NCBI GenBank assembly: GCA_028716245.1
Contig: JAQUQW010000002.1
Span: forward strand, 154,514 to 218,513
Length of the DNA stretch: 64,000 nucleotides
Reading direction: 5' to 3'
DNA from: Candidatus Omnitrophota bacterium
Lineage (GTDB): Bacteria > Omnitrophota > Gorgyraeia > Gygaellales > Profunditerraquicolaceae
Below are positions 10,901-43,720 of this stretch, one piece after another (within the stretch, counting starts at the first letter, position 1; each line of letters opens with the position of its first letter). Below the pieces are notes generated by a model. It saw only the letters and a program-made list of their open reading frames with translations, was not told the origin of the DNA and did no database searches. A program made the position numbers and the translations under genes.

Positions 10901-10950
10901 CTCCTTGCCCACAAGGGCACACCCGCGCAATACCTTATAAGCGCGGGGTG
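10901..10950 (-). repeat. Conserved 5-prime leader element, copy G (upstream of rpsT)
   Basis: Minus-strand sequence CACCCCGCGCTTATAAGGTATTGCGCGGGTGTGCCCTTGTGGGCAAGGAG matches the 6 other copies. Confidence 0.8.
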
Positions 10951-10987
10951 TTTGGTTAATCGAAGGTAATATTATTAGCATAATTAA

Positions 10988-16247: not shown

Positions 16248-16297
16248 CACTCCGCGCTTATAAGGTATTGCGCGGGTGTGCCCTTGTGGGCAGGAGG
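16248..16297 (+). repeat. Conserved 5-prime leader element, copy A (upstream of pilT), preceded by an extended -10 promoter
   Basis: TGtTATAAT at 16232-16240 predicts a TSS near 16247. The element CACTCCGCGCTTATAAGGTATTGCGCGGGTGTGCCCTTGTGGGCAGGAGG follows and ends 4 nt before the ATG. Confidence 0.8.
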
Positions 16298-17437: not shown

Positions 17438-17489
17438 ACACCCCGCGCTTATAAGGTATTGCGCGGGTGTGCCCCTTGCGGGCAAGGAG
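17438..17489 (+). repeat. Conserved 5-prime leader element, copy B (upstream of prfB)
   Basis: ACACCCCGCGCTTATAAGGTATTGCGCGGGTGTGCCCCTTGCGGGCAAGGAG. Confidence 0.8.
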
Positions 17490-17495
17490 ATAATT

Positions 17496-18594
17496 ATGCT
17501 AGAAGAAATTAAAAGTAAGCTTAGTGAAATCGGAGTAAGGATTGAGAACCTACGAGGTTATCTTTGACGTTGCCGACAAAAAAAAGCGGATAGATATTTT
17601 ATCCGGCCAGATGTCTTCTGAAGGATTCTGGAACAACACCGAACAGTCTACCAGGATAGTCAGGGAATTAAAGGATCTTAAAGCCACGGTTGAGCCATGG
17701 GAGTTAGCCAATAAAAAATACCAGGAGTTGGCCGAACTTATTCCCTTGCTTAAAGAAAATGATCAGGATCTGGTTTTAGATTTAACCAGCAATGCCACGG
17801 CCCTTGCGTCGATAATCGATAAATTGGAATTCCAGGTGCTTTTAGGCGGCAGGCTGGATAAGAATAGCACAATCTTAAGTATCAATGCCGGAGCCGGGGG
17901 CACGGAATCCTGCGATTGGGCAGGGATGCTCTTTAGGATGTACAGCCGTTTTGCGGAAAGGCATGGCTACAGCGTAAAGACAATTGATATTCTTGCCGGA
18001 GAAGAAGCGGGGATTAAAAATATAACTATTTTAATCGAAGGCCCGTATGCCTTTGGTTATTTAAAGGCAGAGCGCGGGGTGCACCGGTTAGTGCGCATTT
18101 CGCCTTTTGACGCTAATAAACGCAGGCACACCTCTTTTGCTTCCGTAGATGTGATCCCGGAAATAGAGGAAGAGCTGGATATAAAAATCGAGGAGAAAGA
18201 CCTGCGTATCGATGTTTACCGGTCCAAGGGGGCCGGAGGCCAAAGCGTCAACACCACGGATTCAGCGGTGAGGATTACCCATATACCGACCGGGATCGTG
18301 GCGCAGTGCCAGAATGAGCGTTCGCAGTTTCAAAATAAACAGACGGCCTTAAAAATACTTAAGGCCCGTATTTATGAAGCCCAACAGGCGAAGAAGCAGG
18401 AAGAATTAAAACAGCAGGATGCGGATAAAAAGAAAATTGAGTGGGGCAGCCAGATCCGCTCTTATGTTTTGCATCCTTATAATTTGGTTAAAGACCACCG
18501 CACGGAGTTTGAAACCGGAGATAGTCAGAAAGTTTTAGACGGCGGCCTGGATGAATTTATCGAGGCTTTTCTTAAATATAGTGCCAATAAGTAG
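17496..18594 (+). CDS. prfB: Peptide chain release factor 2 with programmed +1 ribosomal frameshift (frame 0 17496-17567, frame +1 from 17566)
   Basis: Frame 0 MLEEIKSKLSEIGVRIENLRGYL stops at CTT TGA C (17562-17568), preceded by the SD-like GAGG. The +1 frame continues DVADKKKRIDIL... through SPF, GGQ (YRSKGAGGQSVNTT) and the RF2 C-terminus. Confidence 0.9.
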
Positions 18595-18600
18595 CTTGAG

Positions 18601-21531
18601 GTGTTTAAGGTGTTAGGTTTAATTAAAAAAATTATTCTGCAAAATAAACAGAATGCTATTGCCAGCAGGTTCCCTAATTTAAATATAACTTTGCATTCTG
18701 AGATGCCCAGCCCTTCGATGAATAAGATGGTTGAAGTAGCCAGGCTGGTTAATTTGGTGAATTCTTTGGAGCCTAAGATAAGCGCGCTTAGCGATGCGGC
18801 CTTGGCCGCCAAGTCCAATGAATTTAAAGAACATTTAAAAATTAAATCCGCACAATTTTCCCGGGAGCTGGAAGATTGGCATCAGTCCATGCTCAAGGTG
18901 GCTATCCCCGAAGAGAAGGAAAAATTAAAAGAAAAGTTAAAGAACAGCCGTAACAAGATCTTTGCCGATATATTGCCTGAGGCTTTTGCCGTGGTCAGGG
19001 AAGCCTCCAAGCGCACAATCGGCCTGAGGCATTTTGACGTGCAGATTGCCGGAGGGATTATCCTGCACGAAGGCCGGATCGCCGAGATGTCTACCGGAGA
19101 AGGAAAGACTTTGGTGGCTACCTTGGCGGCCTATCTCAATGCTTTATTAGGTAAAGGGGTGCATGTGGTTACCGTCAATGATTATCTTGCCCGGCGCGAC
19201 CGCGAGTGGATGGGTCCGATTTATGAATTCTTGGGTTTATCCGTAGGCACTATCCAGCATGATATGAGCGATGAAGAAAGAAAGGCCGCTTATGCCTGCG
19301 ATATAACTTATGGCACCAACAATGAATTTGGTTTTGATTATCTGCGCGATAATATGAAATATTCTATCCAGGAGCTGGTGCAGAGGCCTTTCTATTACGC
19401 GATCGTGGATGAGGTTGATTCGATATTAGTTGATGAGGCGCGCACCCCGTTGATTATTTCAGGCCCGGCGGAGGAGTCCACGGAAAAATATTACACTGCC
19501 AAAAAAATAGTCGAGCAATTAGATGGCCGCCGGGTTACGGAAAAAGACGAGATCGACGCAAAATATAAAGGGATCGACCTGGGCAAAGGATTTGATTATG
19601 TCGCCGATGAGAAGGCCCAGACCGTGGCCCTGACTGAAGCAGGAGAGATCAAGGCCTCCAAACTCTGGGGGCTAGATTCCCTGCATGCTTTAGAAACAAT
19701 TGAATACCGGCACCATACGATCCAGGCTTTGCGGGCAAAAGAATTCTTTGAGCGCGATGTGGATTATGTAATTAAGGACGGCCAGGTAATTATCGTCGAT
19801 GAATTTACGGGGCGCCTGATGCCCGGCCGGCGCTGGTCAGACGGGCTGCATCAGGCGGTTGAGTCTAAAGAAGGCTTAAAGATTGAGCGGGAGAACCAGA
19901 CTTTAGCCACGATAACTTTTCAGAATTATTTCCGCATGTATGAGAAATTAGCGGGGATGACCGGCACTGCTTTTACCGAAGCCAGTGAATTTAAAAGCAT
20001 TTATCAATTGGACGTGGTTGTTTTGCCCACCAACAAGGTTTTAGCGCGCAAGAACTATTCCGACCGTATTTATAAAACTGAAAAAGAAAAATTTAACGCT
20101 GTAGTCGATGAGATTGCCGAGCTGTACAATTTAGGCAAGCCCGTATTAGTCGGTACGATTACTATCGATAAATCCGAGAGGCTTTCTGAAATGCTCAAGC
20201 GCCGGGGGATTCCGCACCAGGTATTAAATGCCAAATACCATGAAATGGAAGCCCAGATTATCGCCCAGGCCGGCAGCTATAAAGCCGTAACGATTGCCAC
20301 CAATATGGCCGGACGCGGCACGGACATACTTTTAGGAGGCAACCCTGAATTTATTGCCAAAAATGTGGCCAAAGAGAAATTAGATCCCCAGGATCCAAAT
20401 TATCATAGCGAATATAAGAAGATACTCGAGCGTTATAAGTCCGAATCCGCTATTGAACATAATAAAGTAGTGGAATTAGGCGGGTTGCATGTTTTGGGTA
20501 CAGAGCGCCATGAGGCCAGGCGGATTGATAACCAGTTGCGCGGCCGCAGCGGCCGCCAGGGGGATCCGGGTTCTTCGCGTTTTTATGTATCGTTGAAGGA
20601 TGACCTTATGCGCCTGTTCGGCTCAGACAGGATTATCGGGTTGATGGATAAATTGGGCCTTGAGGAAGGCCAGGTTATCGAACACCCCTGGGTCAGCGGC
20701 TCCATTGAGATCGCCCAGCGCCGGGTTGAACAGCATAACTTTGAAATCAGGAAGCAGCTCTTAGAGTATGATAACGTAATGAATAAGCAAAGGGAGATTA
20801 TTTACGGCCAGCGCCTGCAGATCCTGGAAGGTTTTTCTCTGAAAGAAAATATTATTGAAATTATTCCCAGGTTAGTGGATGATTATCTAAAAATTTACGA
20901 TCAGGGGGATTCCTCTGGAGTGGATATAACCGGTTTGGTTAACTCGATAGTTTTAAATTTTGGCCTGGAGTTAGACGCGCAGGTATTTGTGAACCAGGGT
21001 AGCGAAGAATTGAAAGATAAATTAACCCAAAAGATACTTGAAGCTTATGAAAACAAAGAGAAGGCGATTGAACCGCAGCTGCTGCGTAATTTAGAACGCA
21101 TGGTCTTCCTGCAGATTATCGATAGCAAATGGAAGGACCATCTTTATGCCATGGATAGCCTGCGCGAGGGCATTGGTTTGCGCGCCTATGGGCAAAGGGA
21201 CCCTTTAATCGAGTATAAGCGGGAAGCCTTCGGAATGTTTAGCCAGATGATCGGGGCGATCGAAGAAGACGCGGTGCAGACTATTTTTAAATTACAGCCG
21301 GCCAAACCGGACAGGTTTCACGGTGTTTTTAGTTCTTTACCTAAAGAGCTTTCTCATCCAGAGGCAGATAAATTCCAGGCTTCTTTTCAGGAGGAAAGTG
21401 CTCCGGAATTAGCCGTCATGCCGCAGAAGCAGGCAGCTAAACCTGTTCAATCCCATCAACCTAAGGTAGGCCGTAATGACCCCTGTCCTTGCGGTTCGTC
21501 TAAGAAATATAAAAAATGTTGCGGAAAATGA
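18601..21531 (+). CDS. secA: Preprotein translocase ATPase SecA (with C-terminal Zn finger)
   Basis: 976 aa. [28 protein letters not shown]-like NBD motifs, C-terminal [19 protein letters not shown]. Approximately 35-40 aa insertion plus a longer N-terminus before NBD1 relative to E. coli SecA. Confidence 0.95.
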
Positions 21532-24420: not shown

Positions 24421-24472
24421 CACCCCGCACTTATAAGGAATTACGCGGGTATAGCCTTGTGGCCAAGGAGGG
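24421..24472 (+). repeat. Conserved 5-prime leader element, copy C (most diverged)
   Basis: CACCCCGCACTTATAAGGAATTACGCGGGTATAGCCTTGTGGCCAAGGAGGG, 3 nt before the ATG at 24476. Confidence 0.7.
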
Positions 24473-29070: not shown

Positions 29071-29721
29071 ATGAAGAAAAGTTTGCAATTACTTGGATGC
29101 GCGGTTACGTTGTTATTTCTGGCAGGGTGTTTTTCAACCAAGGCGCATTCTGTATTAGATAAGTCTTTGATGGGCCAGCCTCTTAGCCCATACACCGGAG
29201 CCCACGCTAAAATCGCACTTAACGATTTTGAATTAAAAACCTCCGGGATAGACGCGCAGGCCGGTTTGGCTCTGAAAGAATATTTAATCAGTATTTTAAA
29301 TACTACCAAGCGTTTTGTGGTCGTTGTCCCGCAAGAGGCGGATTTAATCATCACCGTTGGAGTTATTGAGTTTATACCGGAGAGCTCAGGCGGAAAATCC
29401 GGTTTAGCCGGAGGTGGAAGCAGCGCCAGTAGTTTTATGGGAGGCCTGTTGGGGGAGGTTTTAAACAAAGCAAATATGCAATTGAGTTTGCGCATTATTG
29501 ACCGGGTCAGTTCAACGGTGCTAAGCAGCCGGGACATCCAGAGCCAGGCGGTGGAAAATCCCGGGAAGAAAACAAAAACTCCCCGCGATAAGGTTTTTAA
29601 GGCAGGTTTAAGCGAATATGCCGGTAAGCCTATGGGTAAGGTTATCCATGATTGCTTGATTGAGGCAGGCCGTTATATCGCCCAAAACGTACCATTAAGT
29701 TATTATAACACCCCGCGCTAA
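29071..29721 (+). CDS. Lipoprotein, possibly CsgG-like
   Basis: Lipobox LAGC. The fold assignment is weak. Its stop codon lies inside leader element copy D. Confidence 0.3.
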   Translation: MKKSLQLLGCAVTLLFLAGCFSTKAHSVLDKSLMGQPLSPYTGAHAKIALNDFELKTSGIDAQAGLALKEYLISILNTTKRFVVVVPQEADLIITVGVIEFIPESSGGKSGLAGGGSSASSFMGGLLGEVLNKANMQLSLRIIDRVSSTVLSSRDIQSQAVENPGKKTKTPRDKVFKAGLSEYAGKPMGKVIHDCLIEAGRYIAQNVPLSYYNTPR

Positions 29722-29756
29722 TAAGGTATTGCGCGGGTGTGCCCTTTTGGGCAAAA
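29708..29756 (+). repeat. Conserved 5-prime leader element, copy D
   Basis: ACACCCCGCGCTAATAAGGTATTGCGCGGGTGTGCCCTTTTGGGCAAAA. SD AAGGTG lies downstream. Confidence 0.75.
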
Positions 29757-41321: not shown

Positions 41322-41328
41322 TTTTTTC

Positions 41329-41357
41329 TTGACAAATGATACTAATGTGGTATCATT
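41329..41357 (+). promoter_or_regulatory. Sigma70-like promoter TTGACA-N16-TATCAT containing a 7-7 inverted repeat between the hexamers
   Basis: ATGATAC-N7-GTATCAT at 41336-41356. The predicted TSS lands near the first base of leader element copy E. Confidence 0.5.
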
Positions 41358-41367
41358 AATTATAGTA

Positions 41368-41418
41368 ACACCCCGCGCTTATAAGGTATTGCGCGGGTGT
41401 GCCTTACTGGCAAGGAGG
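41368..41418 (+). repeat. Conserved 5-prime leader element, copy E
   Basis: ACACCCCGCGCTTATAAGGTATTGCGCGGGTGTGCCTTACTGGCAAGGAGG, followed by the ATG at 41428 of a short ORF. Confidence 0.8.
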
Positions 41419-41553
41419 TGATCAGGTATGGATATAACGGTTAAGTATATGCTTAGGCCGGTAGCGCATTGTAAAGAGGGTTGCAGTAGATTGTCCCGGG
41501 CAAGACGATAAACTGCCCAATGCGTTTTTATAAAATATCATAGGGGTATATTT

Positions 41554-41946
41554 ATGAAACTGATTACCAGAGATACCGATTATGCTTTGCGGGCGCTTTG
41601 TTATATGTCAAAGCAGCAGGATGTTGTAGCGGTAGATGAGTTAGTTAAAAAGCTTGGCGTGCCGCGGCCGTTTATGCGCAAGATTCTTCAACAGTTAAAT
41701 AAAGAAAGGATCTTGGAATCTTATAAAGGACAAGGGGGAGGTTTTAAGCTTAAAGTTCCCCCTGCCAAAATTTTTATAATTAAGATAATGCGTATTTTTC
41801 AGGGACAAGTTGGCCTAAACGGGTGTTTTCTGAAAAAAGATATCTGCCCGGATAAAGGTAAATGTGTTTTAAGAAAAAAAATACACGCGATTGAAGATGA
41901 CCTGGTTGACCGGCTTAAACAGATCAATGTCGCTTCTTTAATTTAA
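41554..41946 (+). CDS. Rrf2-family transcriptional regulator (NsrR/IscR-like) with C-terminal Cys ligands
   Basis: TDYALRALCYMS wHTH, three Cys (C..C....C) near the C-terminus. Lies upstream of hcp. Confidence 0.8.
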   Translation: MKLITRDTDYALRALCYMSKQQDVVAVDELVKKLGVPRPFMRKILQQLNKERILESYKGQGGGFKLKVPPAKIFIIKIMRIFQGQVGLNGCFLKKDICPDKGKCVLRKKIHAIEDDLVDRLKQINVASLI

Positions 41947-41957
41947 AGGGTAATTAT

Positions 41958-42167
41958 ATGGCTAGAAGGAAGATCATTAGTATTGATGAAAAGAAATGTA
42001 ATGGGTGTGGCCTGTGTATTCATAATTGTCTTGAGGGGGTAATCCAGATCATTGATAATAAAGCCCGGATAATTAGCGATTTATCTTGCGATGGTTTGGG
42101 TGCTTGTCTTGGGCATTGTCCGCAGGGAGCAATCAGTATAGAGGAGAGAAAACCTGATGTTTCATAA
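41958..42167 (+). CDS. 2x[4Fe-4S] ferredoxin
   Basis: CNGCGLCIHNC and CDGLGACLGHC cluster motifs in 69 aa. Confidence 0.8.
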   Translation: MARRKIISIDEKKCNGCGLCIHNCLEGVIQIIDNKARIISDLSCDGLGACLGHCPQGAISIEERKPDVS

Positions 42168-42354
42168 GTGTCCGGGTCAGGATAAGCGCCTTGCCAAAGC
42201 AGAAAACATAACTTGTTCTAATTGCGGGTAGGCAGCGGAGATTCTTTCCGATGAGCTTAAAGTGCGCTGCCCGCAGTGTAGAGATTTAATCTGCAAGGAG
42301 AGATTGCCTTCCTGCGTGGATTGGTGCAGGGCAGCTAAAAAGTGTATTGGATAG
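42157..42354 (+). CDS. Cys-rich zinc-ribbon-like small ORF interrupted by an in-frame UAG (42229-42231)
   Basis: MFHKCPGQDKRLAKAENITCSNCG-TAG-AAEILSDELKVRCPQCRDLICKERLPSCVDWCRAAKKCIG. CxxC knuckles lie on both sides of the stop in one frame. Confidence 0.35.
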
Positions 42355-42364
42355 GAGGTGCTCA

Positions 42365-43660
42365 ATGTTTTGTTATCAATGCGAACAGACGGCCGGCGGT
42401 ACAGGCTGCACAAAGTTGGGGGTCTGCGGCAAAAATGAGGATATCCAGAGCCTGCAGGATATGCTTTTATTCGGTTTAAAAGGTATTGCTGCTTATGCTT
42501 ATCACGCGCGGCAATTAGGCGCCCGCGATGAAGAAGTGGATGCTTTTATGCACGGAGGGCTTTTTAAAACCGTAACCAATGTTAGTTTTGACCTGAATCA
42601 GTATCTGGAATTGGTTTTAAAATGCGGAGCGATGAATTATAAAACTATGGAGATGCTGGATAAGGCGCATACGCAAAAGTTCGGCAATCCGGTTCCTACC
42701 GCGGTAGAAACCGGCATCAAAGCCGGGCCGGCAATTTTAGTCACCGGGCATGATTTATTGGATCTTTATGAATTGCTTAAACAGTCTGAAGGGGCCGGAG
42801 TAAATATTTATACGCACAGTGAAATGCTACCCGCGCACGGTTATCCGCAGCTTAAGAAGTTTAAGCATCTGGCGGGCAACTATGGCGGGGCCTGGCAGGA
42901 GCAGAAAAAAGAATTCAATGCCTTTAGCGGGGCAATACTGGCAACGACCAACTGTGTATTAATTCCGCCGGAAAATTCCTATCTGGACAGGTTATTTACG
43001 ATAGGCATAACCGGCGTAGCGGGAGCAATACATTTGAAATCCCGGGACTTTAAATCTTTAATTGCAAAAGCTAAATCCCTGCCGCCTTTACCGGAGGCTC
43101 CCGGTAAGAAGATCTGGACAGGTTTTCACCATACGGCAATTTTAGGATTAGCGGATAAAATCGTCAGCTTAGTTAAAGCCGGCAAGATTAAGCATTTTTT
43201 CTTAATCGGCGGTTGTGACGGCGCAAAACCCGGGCGTAATTATTACACCGAGTTTGCGGAAAGAGTGCCCAAGGATTGTGTAATCCTTACGCTTGCCTGC
43301 GGTAAATACCGGTTTAACAAACTTGAATTCGGGGATATCGAAGGGATGCCCAGATTAATTGACATTGGCCAGTGCAATAATGCTTACTCCGCGATTCAGG
43401 TAGCCGTGGCTTTAGCCGATGCTTTTGGCTGTAGTGTAAATGACCTGCCTCTGACCCTGGTGTTATCTTGGTTTGAGCAAAAAGCAGTTGCTATCCTGCT
43501 TACTTTGTTGTACCTTAATATTAAGGGCATCTATATCGGGCCAACCCCGCCTGCCTTTATAAGTAAAAATGTTTTTAAGCTTTTACAGGAGAAATTTGAC
43601 TTAAGGCTGATCTCTACGCCGGATGAAGACTTAAAGCAAATATTAAAGAAATTAAAATAG
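42365..43660 (+). CDS. hcp: Hybrid cluster protein / hydroxylamine reductase, short class
   Basis: MFCYQCEQTAGGTGCTKLGVCGK N-terminal cubane motif, HDLLDLYELL, CGKYRFNKLEFGDIEGMPRLIDIGQCNNAYSA hybrid-cluster ligands. Approximately 110 aa shorter than E. coli Hcp. Confidence 0.9.
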   Translation: MFCYQCEQTAGGTGCTKLGVCGKNEDIQSLQDMLLFGLKGIAAYAYHARQLGARDEEVDAFMHGGLFKTVTNVSFDLNQYLELVLKCGAMNYKTMEMLDKAHTQKFGNPVPTAVETGIKAGPAILVTGHDLLDLYELLKQSEGAGVNIYTHSEMLPAHGYPQLKKFKHLAGNYGGAWQEQKKEFNAFSGAILATTNCVLIPPENSYLDRLFTIGITGVAGAIHLKSRDFKSLIAKAKSLPPLPEAPGKKIWTGFHHTAILGLADKIVSLVKAGKIKHFFLIGGCDGAKPGRNYYTEFAERVPKDCVILTLACGKYRFNKLEFGDIEGMPRLIDIGQCNNAYSAIQVAVALADAFGCSVNDLPLTLVLSWFEQKAVAILLTLLYLNIKGIYIGPTPPAFISKNVFKLLQEKFDLRLISTPDEDLKQILKKLK

Positions 43661-43668
43661 GATAACAA

Positions 43669-43720
43669 TACCCCGCGCTTACAAGGAATTGCGCGGGTAT
43701 GCCCTTGTGGGCAAAGGAGG
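43669..43720 (+). repeat. Conserved 5-prime leader element, copy F
   Basis: TACCCCGCGCTTACAAGGAATTGCGCGGGTATGCCCTTGTGGGCAAAGGAGG, 5 nt before the ATG at 43726. Confidence 0.8.

Follow-up and report, generated by a model that had tools for sequence, protein, structure and literature searches.

A premature TAG in a conserved eight-cysteine small gene upstream of hcp in Candidatus Omnitrophota is most probably a recent nonsense mutation

Does an in-frame UAG inside a conserved metal-binding domain indicate recoding of the stop codon, or has the gene that carries it been inactivated? This question is raised by a small cysteine-rich open reading frame (ORF) upstream of hcp in a 64,000-nucleotide (nt) stretch of DNA from a Candidatus Omnitrophota bacterium (assembly GCA_028716245.1, contig JAQUQW010000002.1, positions 154,514 to 218,513 of the forward strand), referred to as the window in the following. 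Translation of positions 42157-42360 gives MFHKCPGQDKRLAKAENITCSNCG, a stop, AAEILSDELKVRCPQCRDLICKERLPSCVDWCRAAKKCIG, a second stop and EV. The frame of 65 codons (42157-42354, forward strand) contains eight Cys codons. It is divided by a premature TAG at codon 25 (42229-42231) into a 5' fragment (codons 1-24 and the TAG, 42157-42231) and a 3' remnant (codons 26-65, 42232-42354), which comprises 40 sense codons and a second TAG (42352-42354); the ATG of hcp is located at 42365. The re-translation agrees with a preliminary description of this DNA, in which read-through or recoding of the UAG, a recent pseudogenising mutation, a sequencing error and two tiny ORFs had been offered as explanations. 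The ancestral Tyr at codon 25, gene losses in the same clade and amino acid replacements on the branch of the window favour the second of them: 42157-42354 is most probably a genuine and evolutionarily recent nonsense pseudogene of a small gene which is dispensable in the clade.

Both halves of the interrupted frame belong to one predicted metal-binding domain, as had been supposed from the Cys pattern across the stop. The read-through product matches 16 uninterrupted proteins of 73-90 amino acids (aa) with E-values of 1e-14 to 1e-29 and a coverage of 97-100%, and the eight Cys are aligned without gaps across 87 sequences. At more than 100 orthologous loci, almost all of Candidatus Omnitrophota, the gene encodes one uninterrupted protein of 65-90 aa with the eight Cys in register, and a scan of the GTDB species representatives identified 152 genomes with the small gene, nearly all of the same phylum. 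Invariant residues are found on both sides of the stop (C5-P-G-Q, C20, C23, E28, S31-D-E, K35, C38, C41, P51-S-C53, W56-C57, A60, C63 and G65). The best Pfam match, Zn_ribbon_NUD, covers residues 20-42 and spans the stop, with a score of 23.8 bits that lies just under the threshold of 24.8 bits; all Pfam zinc-ribbon scores are below the gathering cut-offs. Two CxxC knuckles are present and invariant. In an AlphaFold2 model of a homologue, which was built from a 15-sequence alignment and is only indicative (mean pLDDT, the predicted local distance difference test, of 62.5), beta-strands 15-19/26-30 and 35-37/44-46 form hairpins around the two knuckles and are followed by two helices. Since the hairpins of the model surround both knuckles, the stop would fall inside the predicted zinc ribbon. 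The small protein would hence combine a predicted four-Cys zinc ribbon (C20, C23, C38, C41) with four further Cys (C5, C53, C57, C63). No function was inferred from structure searches: Foldseek gave no significant match in the PDB, only generic zinc-ribbon and RBR matches with E-values above 0.2, and the best result of a PDB sequence search was RpoP (E = 0.01).

The stop at codon 25 is unique to the window. A comparison of orthologous loci for a sense codon at this position, proposed in the preliminary description, showed Tyr in 75 of 86 loci (TAT in 55 and TAC in 20) and His, Phe, Gln, Trp, Cys, Glu or Ser in the others. None of these 86 loci displays an in-frame stop within the small gene, and a stop at codon 25 occurs in none of more than 100 loci. 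Around this codon, the closest orthologue (locus L112) reads GGT TAT GTG and the window GGG TAG GCA. As codon 25 is TAT or TAC in most of the relatives, the TAG is one substitution away from the ancestral Tyr codon. Another 21 metagenome loci agree, the only stops there being those of one indel-ridden contig (Ga0182028_1546742, positions 943-1160, locus L101). This contig was considered as a second natural case and rejected: paired single-base indels relative to the near-identical locus L089 create double stops, and the neighbouring genes are frameshifted as well, which identifies a sequencing-error artefact.

TAG is a normal stop codon in this DNA. It terminates 13 of the 48 window ORFs of at least 200 codons (27%), including hcp and prfB. 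Within the 64 kb, no suppressor, CUA-anticodon or pyrrolysine (Pyl) tRNA was detected, the only tRNAs found being tRNA-Leu(CAA) and tRNA-Ala(GGC), and no Rfam element besides these two. In the 120 nt around and after the UAG, no stimulatory RNA structure was evident (minimum free energy z = -0.79 compared to shuffled sequences). For Omnitrophota, literature searches returned no account of pyrrolysine or of a recoded stop codon. Of the release factors, the window encodes RF2 and not RF1, and RF2 says nothing on the termination at UAG. Its gene, prfB (17496-18594, 500 bits to TIGR00020), ends in TAG, is directly followed by secA (18604-21531) and contains a programmed +1 frameshift at about 17559-17567: the 0-frame from ATG 17496 runs through ...LRGYF to TGA (17565-17567), and the +1 frame continues with DVADKKK... 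into the body of RF2. A scan for other same-frame ORF pairs split by one stop yielded mostly noise, and its striking candidate, the TAG at 18592, proved to be prfB followed by secA. These sequence data give no sign that UAG serves as a sense codon in the organism, and such a use is not supported.

In the clade of the window, the small gene has been lost repeatedly. The members of this clade were surfaced by a protein search with Rrf2, the regulator encoded upstream of the small gene (83-95% identity, synonymous divergence, dS, of about 0.3-0.5). They had been missed by searches with the small protein, probably because most of them do not have the small gene; small-protein scans of the GTDB species representatives and of JGI metagenomes revealed no relative above the level of 77-78% DNA identity. 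The long-contig relatives L112, L113 and L114 share the upstream synteny of the window (DegT-FemAB-EamA-EamA), without ArsP, and CitMHS is also present in L112 and L113. In L112 (Rrf2 identity 90%), the small gene is intact (76 aa, TAT at codon 25), hcp is present, and the ferredoxin-like protein with an AF_0155 domain (Fd-AF_0155) is shortened to 197 aa. L113 (86%) has an Fd-AF_0155 of 189 aa and hcp; the core of the small gene is deleted and its 3' tail is fused to the end of the ferredoxin-like gene. In L111 and L115 (90% and 89%), which derive from two different samples, hcp is present, the small gene is deleted and the ferredoxin-like gene is deleted down to a stub of 13 codons. L114 (83%) encodes an Fd-AF_0155 of 197 aa, the small gene is deleted except for the 5' stub MFDKC, and hcp is deleted with a C-terminal remnant left. 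The contig of L110 (95%) encodes an Fd-AF_0155 of at least 172 aa and ends before the small gene and hcp. At least three separate deletions of the small gene, all with scars, are thus found in the clade (L113, L111/L115 and L114), and the window represents a fourth case with a different lesion. The converse was observed in P0001, the closest small-protein homologue of the first search, where hcp and the ferredoxin-like gene are deleted and rrf2 and the small gene are kept, in two independent assemblies.

Other scars were seen at the end of hcp. In L108 (1560-1832) and L109 (715-987), the small protein ends in a tail that stems from the C-terminus of Hcp (KAVAILLILLYLNI...), and in L114 (3995-4075) the same C-terminal remnant of Hcp is joined to codons 1-5 of the small gene. 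Since the scars of all three loci involve this remnant, the C-terminal region of Hcp seems to be a recurrent deletion endpoint.

The window itself has undergone two deletions beside the nonsense mutation. The gene upstream of the interrupted frame encodes a truncated ferredoxin-like protein of 69 aa with a 2x[4Fe-4S] domain only (41958-42167, forward strand, identified by Fer4 matches). The corresponding protein of relatives has 189-277 aa (274-277 aa in the syntenic ones) and comprises Fer4 and the AF_0155 domain (PF27217). About 600 nt, corresponding to positions 3372-3974 of L001 and to the entire AF_0155 domain, are missing from the window, in which tblastn gave no AF_0155 match. The junction lies in a short direct repeat (42132-42152, forward strand; ISIEER.../ISIKGE...), where the blastn flanks overlap and the DNA alignment shows a 1-nt gap. 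Owing to the one-base frame shift that the deletion causes, the overlapping stop of the ancestor (TGATG, 42155-42159) is no longer in frame. Because the junction is off by one base, the ferredoxin frame runs 11 nt into the small ORF starting at ATG 42157. This overlap, which had been taken as a sign of translational coupling, is therefore a by-product of the deletion; in relatives, the small gene overlaps the Fd-AF_0155 stop in the usual way (TAATG/ATGA). The second deletion was located by DNA alignment and by comparison with L112 at 42349-42360 (forward strand), where 35-50 nt coding for the conserved C-terminal tail of the small protein (EExWKQLK...) are gone. The terminal TAG (42352-42354) stands at this junction and abuts the Shine-Dalgarno sequence of hcp (GGAGG, 42354-42358). 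The loss of the tail alone need not disable the small protein, since naturally tail-less family members of 65-69 aa exist (P0028, P0031, P0085). The small ORF of the window retains its translation start and Shine-Dalgarno sequence.

A relaxation of constraint on the branch of the window is suggested by the substitutions. Compared to distant relatives, synonymous sites are saturated (proportion of synonymous differences, pS, of 0.5-0.9) and the small gene of the window appears as constrained as the others (ratio of nonsynonymous to synonymous proportions, pN/pS, of 0.21 versus 0.17). The ratio of nonsynonymous to synonymous divergence (dN/dS) calculated with these relatives is uninformative on the terminal branch, and it is informative only with L112 (dS 0.50). 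Between the small genes of the window and L112, 8 nonsynonymous and 14 synonymous differences were counted, and seven of the 8 nonsynonymous ones are located downstream of the stop. The ratio of nonsynonymous to synonymous differences is 7:6 downstream versus 1:8 upstream of the stop (p = 0.07), and the downstream ratio compares with 30:96 in hcp (p = 0.027). Changes were further polarised with L112 as sister and L008 or L010 as outgroup, both sister and outgroups being picked by identity and not from a formal tree. The distribution of changes between the window branch and the L112 branch is 6:0 or 7:0 in the small gene (5:0 or 6:0 without the stop), versus 5:7 or 2:7 in rrf2 and 6:14 or 9:11 in hcp (one-sided Fisher test, p = 0.004, and 0.008-0.010 when the stop itself is excluded). 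The replacements specific to the window are N3H in the 5' fragment and F30L (CTT, 42244-42246), I34L, K42R, N43D and E62K in the 3' remnant. The column of F30L is Phe in the other 82 sequences. Besides the stop, the window copy has a single residue that was never seen elsewhere. A lone base-call error does not produce such an excess of amino acid changes, and functional read-through would predict the opposite.

One region has an unusual divergence. The segment 41958-42228, which comprises the N-terminal part of the ferredoxin-like gene and codons 1-24 of the small gene, displays a dS of about 1.1-2.4 in comparison with L110, L112 and L113, two to five times the values of rrf2 and hcp (0.33-0.52). 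This suggests that the segment may have a mosaic or recombinant history.

Taken as a mechanism, these observations would be accounted for by a single base change that converted the Tyr-25 codon (TAT or TAC) to TAG. Ribosomes are expected to terminate at 42229-42231, when 24 residues have been made and the predicted zinc ribbon is half complete, and the released peptide would be unable to fold. The 3' remnant (42232-42354) is probably untranslated, and its 40 codons would be a relic that is beginning to drift. The nonsense mutation would represent one event in a reductive remodelling which affects the rrf2-hcp interval throughout the clade and is still in progress. The window has also lost the AF_0155 domain of the neighbouring protein and the tail of the small gene, and sister lineages have deleted the small gene outright; hcp of the window is intact and has its own Shine-Dalgarno sequence.

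Several observations do not fit easily with a pseudogene. The remnant is well preserved, as it has lost none of the eight Cys and keeps 15 of the 16 columns with at least 97% conservation, the overall dN/dS with L112 is 0.11 and the leave-one-out profile score of the window copy ranks 55th among 83. With 1 nonsynonymous and 8 synonymous differences, the 24 codons upstream of the stop are unlike those of a long-dead gene. The tests of relaxed constraint rely on small counts from a very short gene. In the wider family, different residues occupy position 25 (Y, A, E, G, T, K and others), so that any low-level near-cognate read-through would give a viable protein. Finally, exact-sequence look-ups of Hcp, Rrf2 and the 69-aa ferredoxin-like protein of the window found no contig of the same strain. 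Because the remnant is still so well preserved, the stop must be young. The same preservation would also suit an error of sequencing, assembly or consensus, by which an organism with TAT or TAC at codon 25 and a functional tail-less small gene would only appear to carry a stop. The TAG is one base from the ancestral codon, natural members of 65-69 aa without the tail exist, and neither the exact look-ups nor the public scans gave a second assembly of the strain that would confirm the base. An error is nevertheless unlikely, since one miscalled base leaves unexplained both the replacement excess on the branch (6:0 or 7:0, p of about 0.004-0.01 even without the stop) and F30L at an invariant position. 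Moreover, the rest of the window consists of dense intact ORFs with no sign of low quality, the truly error-ridden contig L101 has multiple indels, and sister lineages are demonstrably without the small gene.

Decoding of the UAG into a full-length protein of 65 aa, be it by programmed or leaky read-through, by an amber suppressor such as a tRNA-Tyr with a CUA anticodon or by pyrrolysine insertion, is very unlikely. It would agree with the 40 open codons downstream, with the retention of every Cys and of the start and Shine-Dalgarno sequence, and with the tolerance of the wider family for many residues at position 25. In contrast, the stop is found at a single one of more than 100 orthologous loci, TAG ends 27% of the long ORFs of the window including the next gene, the UAG is accompanied by no stimulatory RNA structure, and the 64 kb contain no tRNA-CUA, no Pyl tRNA and no relevant Rfam element; the literature searches gave no link between Omnitrophota and pyrrolysine. 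Downstream of the stop, constraint appears relaxed and not maintained, and the true recoding site of the window, the +1 frameshift of prfB, is classical and family-wide. Even less credible is a split gene producing two mini-proteins of 24 aa and about 30 aa, which would assemble or act independently. An in-frame GTG at 42262 could indeed start a product of 30 aa (MRCPQCRDL...CIG), and the ratio of 1:8 in the 5' fragment compared with L112 could be read as constraint on the first of the two. However, this GTG is the only downstream start and no Shine-Dalgarno sequence precedes it, it lies past the conserved EIFSDExK strand, the four putative zinc ligands would be divided between two chains, and no orthologue is organised in this way. 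The high dS of the 5' fragment matches that of the adjacent ferredoxin segment (both about 1.1-1.2 with L112), and the 1:8 ratio is thus probably due to the age and mosaic nature of the segment and not to any special constraint. A nonsense pseudogene remains the preferred explanation, and the question of UAG recoding in this metal-binding domain is answered in the negative; the locus is not reportable as a case of stop-codon recoding. Positions 42157-42354 should be annotated as a pseudogene, with the truncated ferredoxin-like gene next to it and the intact hcp downstream.

The event most closely resembles an ordinary nonsense pseudogene in the course of bacterial reductive gene loss. It shares with other bacterial nonsense pseudogenes a one-base change from sense to stop at a conserved codon, accompanying deletions, faster replacement on the branch and deletions in sister lineages. 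It differs from them in that it is young, with a nearly intact remnant, and in that the gene is very short and offers few sites for statistics. The similarity with pyrrolysine UAG codons, such as those of methylamine methyltransferase genes, is superficial and limited to the presence of an in-frame UAG inside a conserved domain. Pyrrolysine sites are conserved among orthologues. The UAG of the window is not conserved, it replaces an ancestral Tyr, TAG is a common terminator, and pyl genes and tRNA-CUA are absent from the 64 kb. The frameshift of prfB offers an internal contrast, as it is a genuine recoding event in the same genome with a canonical architecture, whereas the UAG of the small gene has no such conserved architecture. 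With zinc-ribbon mini-proteins (Zn_ribbon_NUD, Zn_ribbon_8, RpoP), the small protein shares two CxxC knuckles, which are spaced by about 14 residues and lie on predicted beta-hairpins, with weak profile matches over residues 20-42. In contrast to them, all its matches are under the curated thresholds, and the eight-Cys family adds four invariant Cys (CPGQ..., PSCxDWCxxAxxCxG) and a helical C-terminal half.

The genes around the interrupted frame form an Rrf2-ferredoxin-Hcp operon setting, as had been proposed, which was supported by Pfam matches and by the synteny in relatives. A sigma-70-like promoter (TTGACA-16-TATCAT, 11 of 12 promoter positions matched) is located within the palindrome AATGATACTAATGTGGTATCATT at 41329-41356 (forward strand). 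Nearly identical sequences are present upstream of rrf2 in L001, L003, L008, L009 and L010. Because these relatives otherwise show only about 75% DNA identity, the palindrome is a candidate Rrf2 operator, and this region is probably the promoter/operator through which Rrf2 autoregulates the operon. Downstream of the promoter and ahead of rrf2, a micro-ORF of 27 aa with a strong Shine-Dalgarno sequence (MDITVKYMLRPVAHCKEGCSRLSRARR, 41428-41511, forward strand) was recognised from the ORF list and the relatives; of 115 related loci, 74 encode this peptide at the corresponding site, most differences being synonymous, and it may represent a micro-protein or serve the Rrf2 operon as a leader peptide. 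The gene rrf2 itself (41554-41946, forward strand) encodes an intact Rrf2-family transcriptional regulator of 130 aa (Pfam Rrf2, 9.3e-28). Downstream of the interrupted frame, hcp (42365-43660, forward strand) encodes an intact hybrid-cluster protein of 431 aa (Pfam Prismane, 2.3e-138), has its own Shine-Dalgarno sequence and ends in TAG; the protein shows 94-95% aa identity to the clade relatives, with a dN/dS of 0.07.

Other features of the region were recorded. In distant syntenic relatives (L001, 1542-2579; L003, 280-1317), a gene for an ArsP_1 permease of 345 aa is inserted between CitMHS and rrf2, and it is missing from the window (41322-41553), L112 and L113. A 36-nt palindromic intergenic repeat resembling repetitive extragenic palindromic elements (ACACCCCGCGCTTATAAGGTATTGCGCGGGTGTGCC) occurs in seven copies within the 64 kb (41367-41403, 10916-10952 on the reverse strand, 16252-16282, 17438-17473, 24421-24450, 29706-29743 and 43670-43703), and related copies are present in intergenic regions of L112. 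L008, L010, L001 (4243-4378) and L009 contain GC-rich hairpins (GCCTGCCTGCCGGCAGGCAGG) or a repeated insert of about 130 nt between the small gene and hcp. Some of these inserts extend the reading frame of the small protein by C-terminal tails of variable sequence (...KACLPAGR..., ...LPPKADSPTAKKGGR; P0005, P0008, P0010).

What the intact gene does may be approached through its family and its neighbours. The family comprises 832 clusters (50% identity), as delineated by a profile search among 1.84 billion representative proteins. Pfam and NCBIfam contain no model for the eight-Cys protein. The module is either stand-alone or N-terminal in larger proteins, with fusions to HD (P0025, P0032, P0075), LMWPc/ArsC-like (P0079) and hemerythrin (P0116) domains; L007, L026, L027, L082 and L083 are listed as loci where it is fused to larger proteins. 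Rrf2 accompanies the small gene most constantly, being encoded directly upstream of it or of its operon at about 81 of 86 loci. Fd-AF_0155 and hcp are each present in only part of the loci, and the small gene of Omnitrophota usually stands between these two. Stress genes linked to the family in Omnitrophota are hcp and those for a flavodiiron protein, rubredoxin and desulfoferrodoxin. For the ferredoxin-like neighbour, the frdX-hcp operon of Clostridioides difficile may be regarded as a functional parallel, in which both frdX and hcp are needed for nitric oxide (NO) tolerance (PMC12915319). As in the nitrosative-stress operons of C. difficile and Desulfovibrio, a ferredoxin-like Fe-S gene stands with hcp in an operon with a dedicated regulator. 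Unlike in these operons, the regulator of the window is of the Rrf2 type and not HcpR, and an additional small eight-Cys gene lies between the ferredoxin-like gene and hcp. Also, the window protein consists of the Fer4 part only, as opposed to the Fd-AF_0155 protein of the relatives with both domains (2x[4Fe-4S] and PF27217).

Given the eight invariant Cys, the near-obligate linkage to Rrf2, the neighbourhood of stress genes and the fusions to hemerythrin, HD and ArsC-like domains, the intact family may correspond to a small Zn and/or Fe-S protein that would work with Rrf2 or with the Fd-AF_0155/Hcp redox system in the defence against nitrosative or oxidative stress. Two further possibilities, which even jointly are rather doubtful, are that the family is a new metal- or Fe-S-based partner of Rrf2 sensing the redox state or NO, the window and its sisters then being natural knock-outs, or, with less likelihood, that low-level decoding of the UAG keeps the gene working. 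This analysis defines a conserved and so far unannotated family of eight-Cys small proteins that is tightly tied to Rrf2 regulators and to nitrosative and oxidative stress genes in Omnitrophota. It also identifies the rrf2-hcp interval as a hotspot of independent deletions within one clade, which provides a natural loss-of-function series for these accessory genes.

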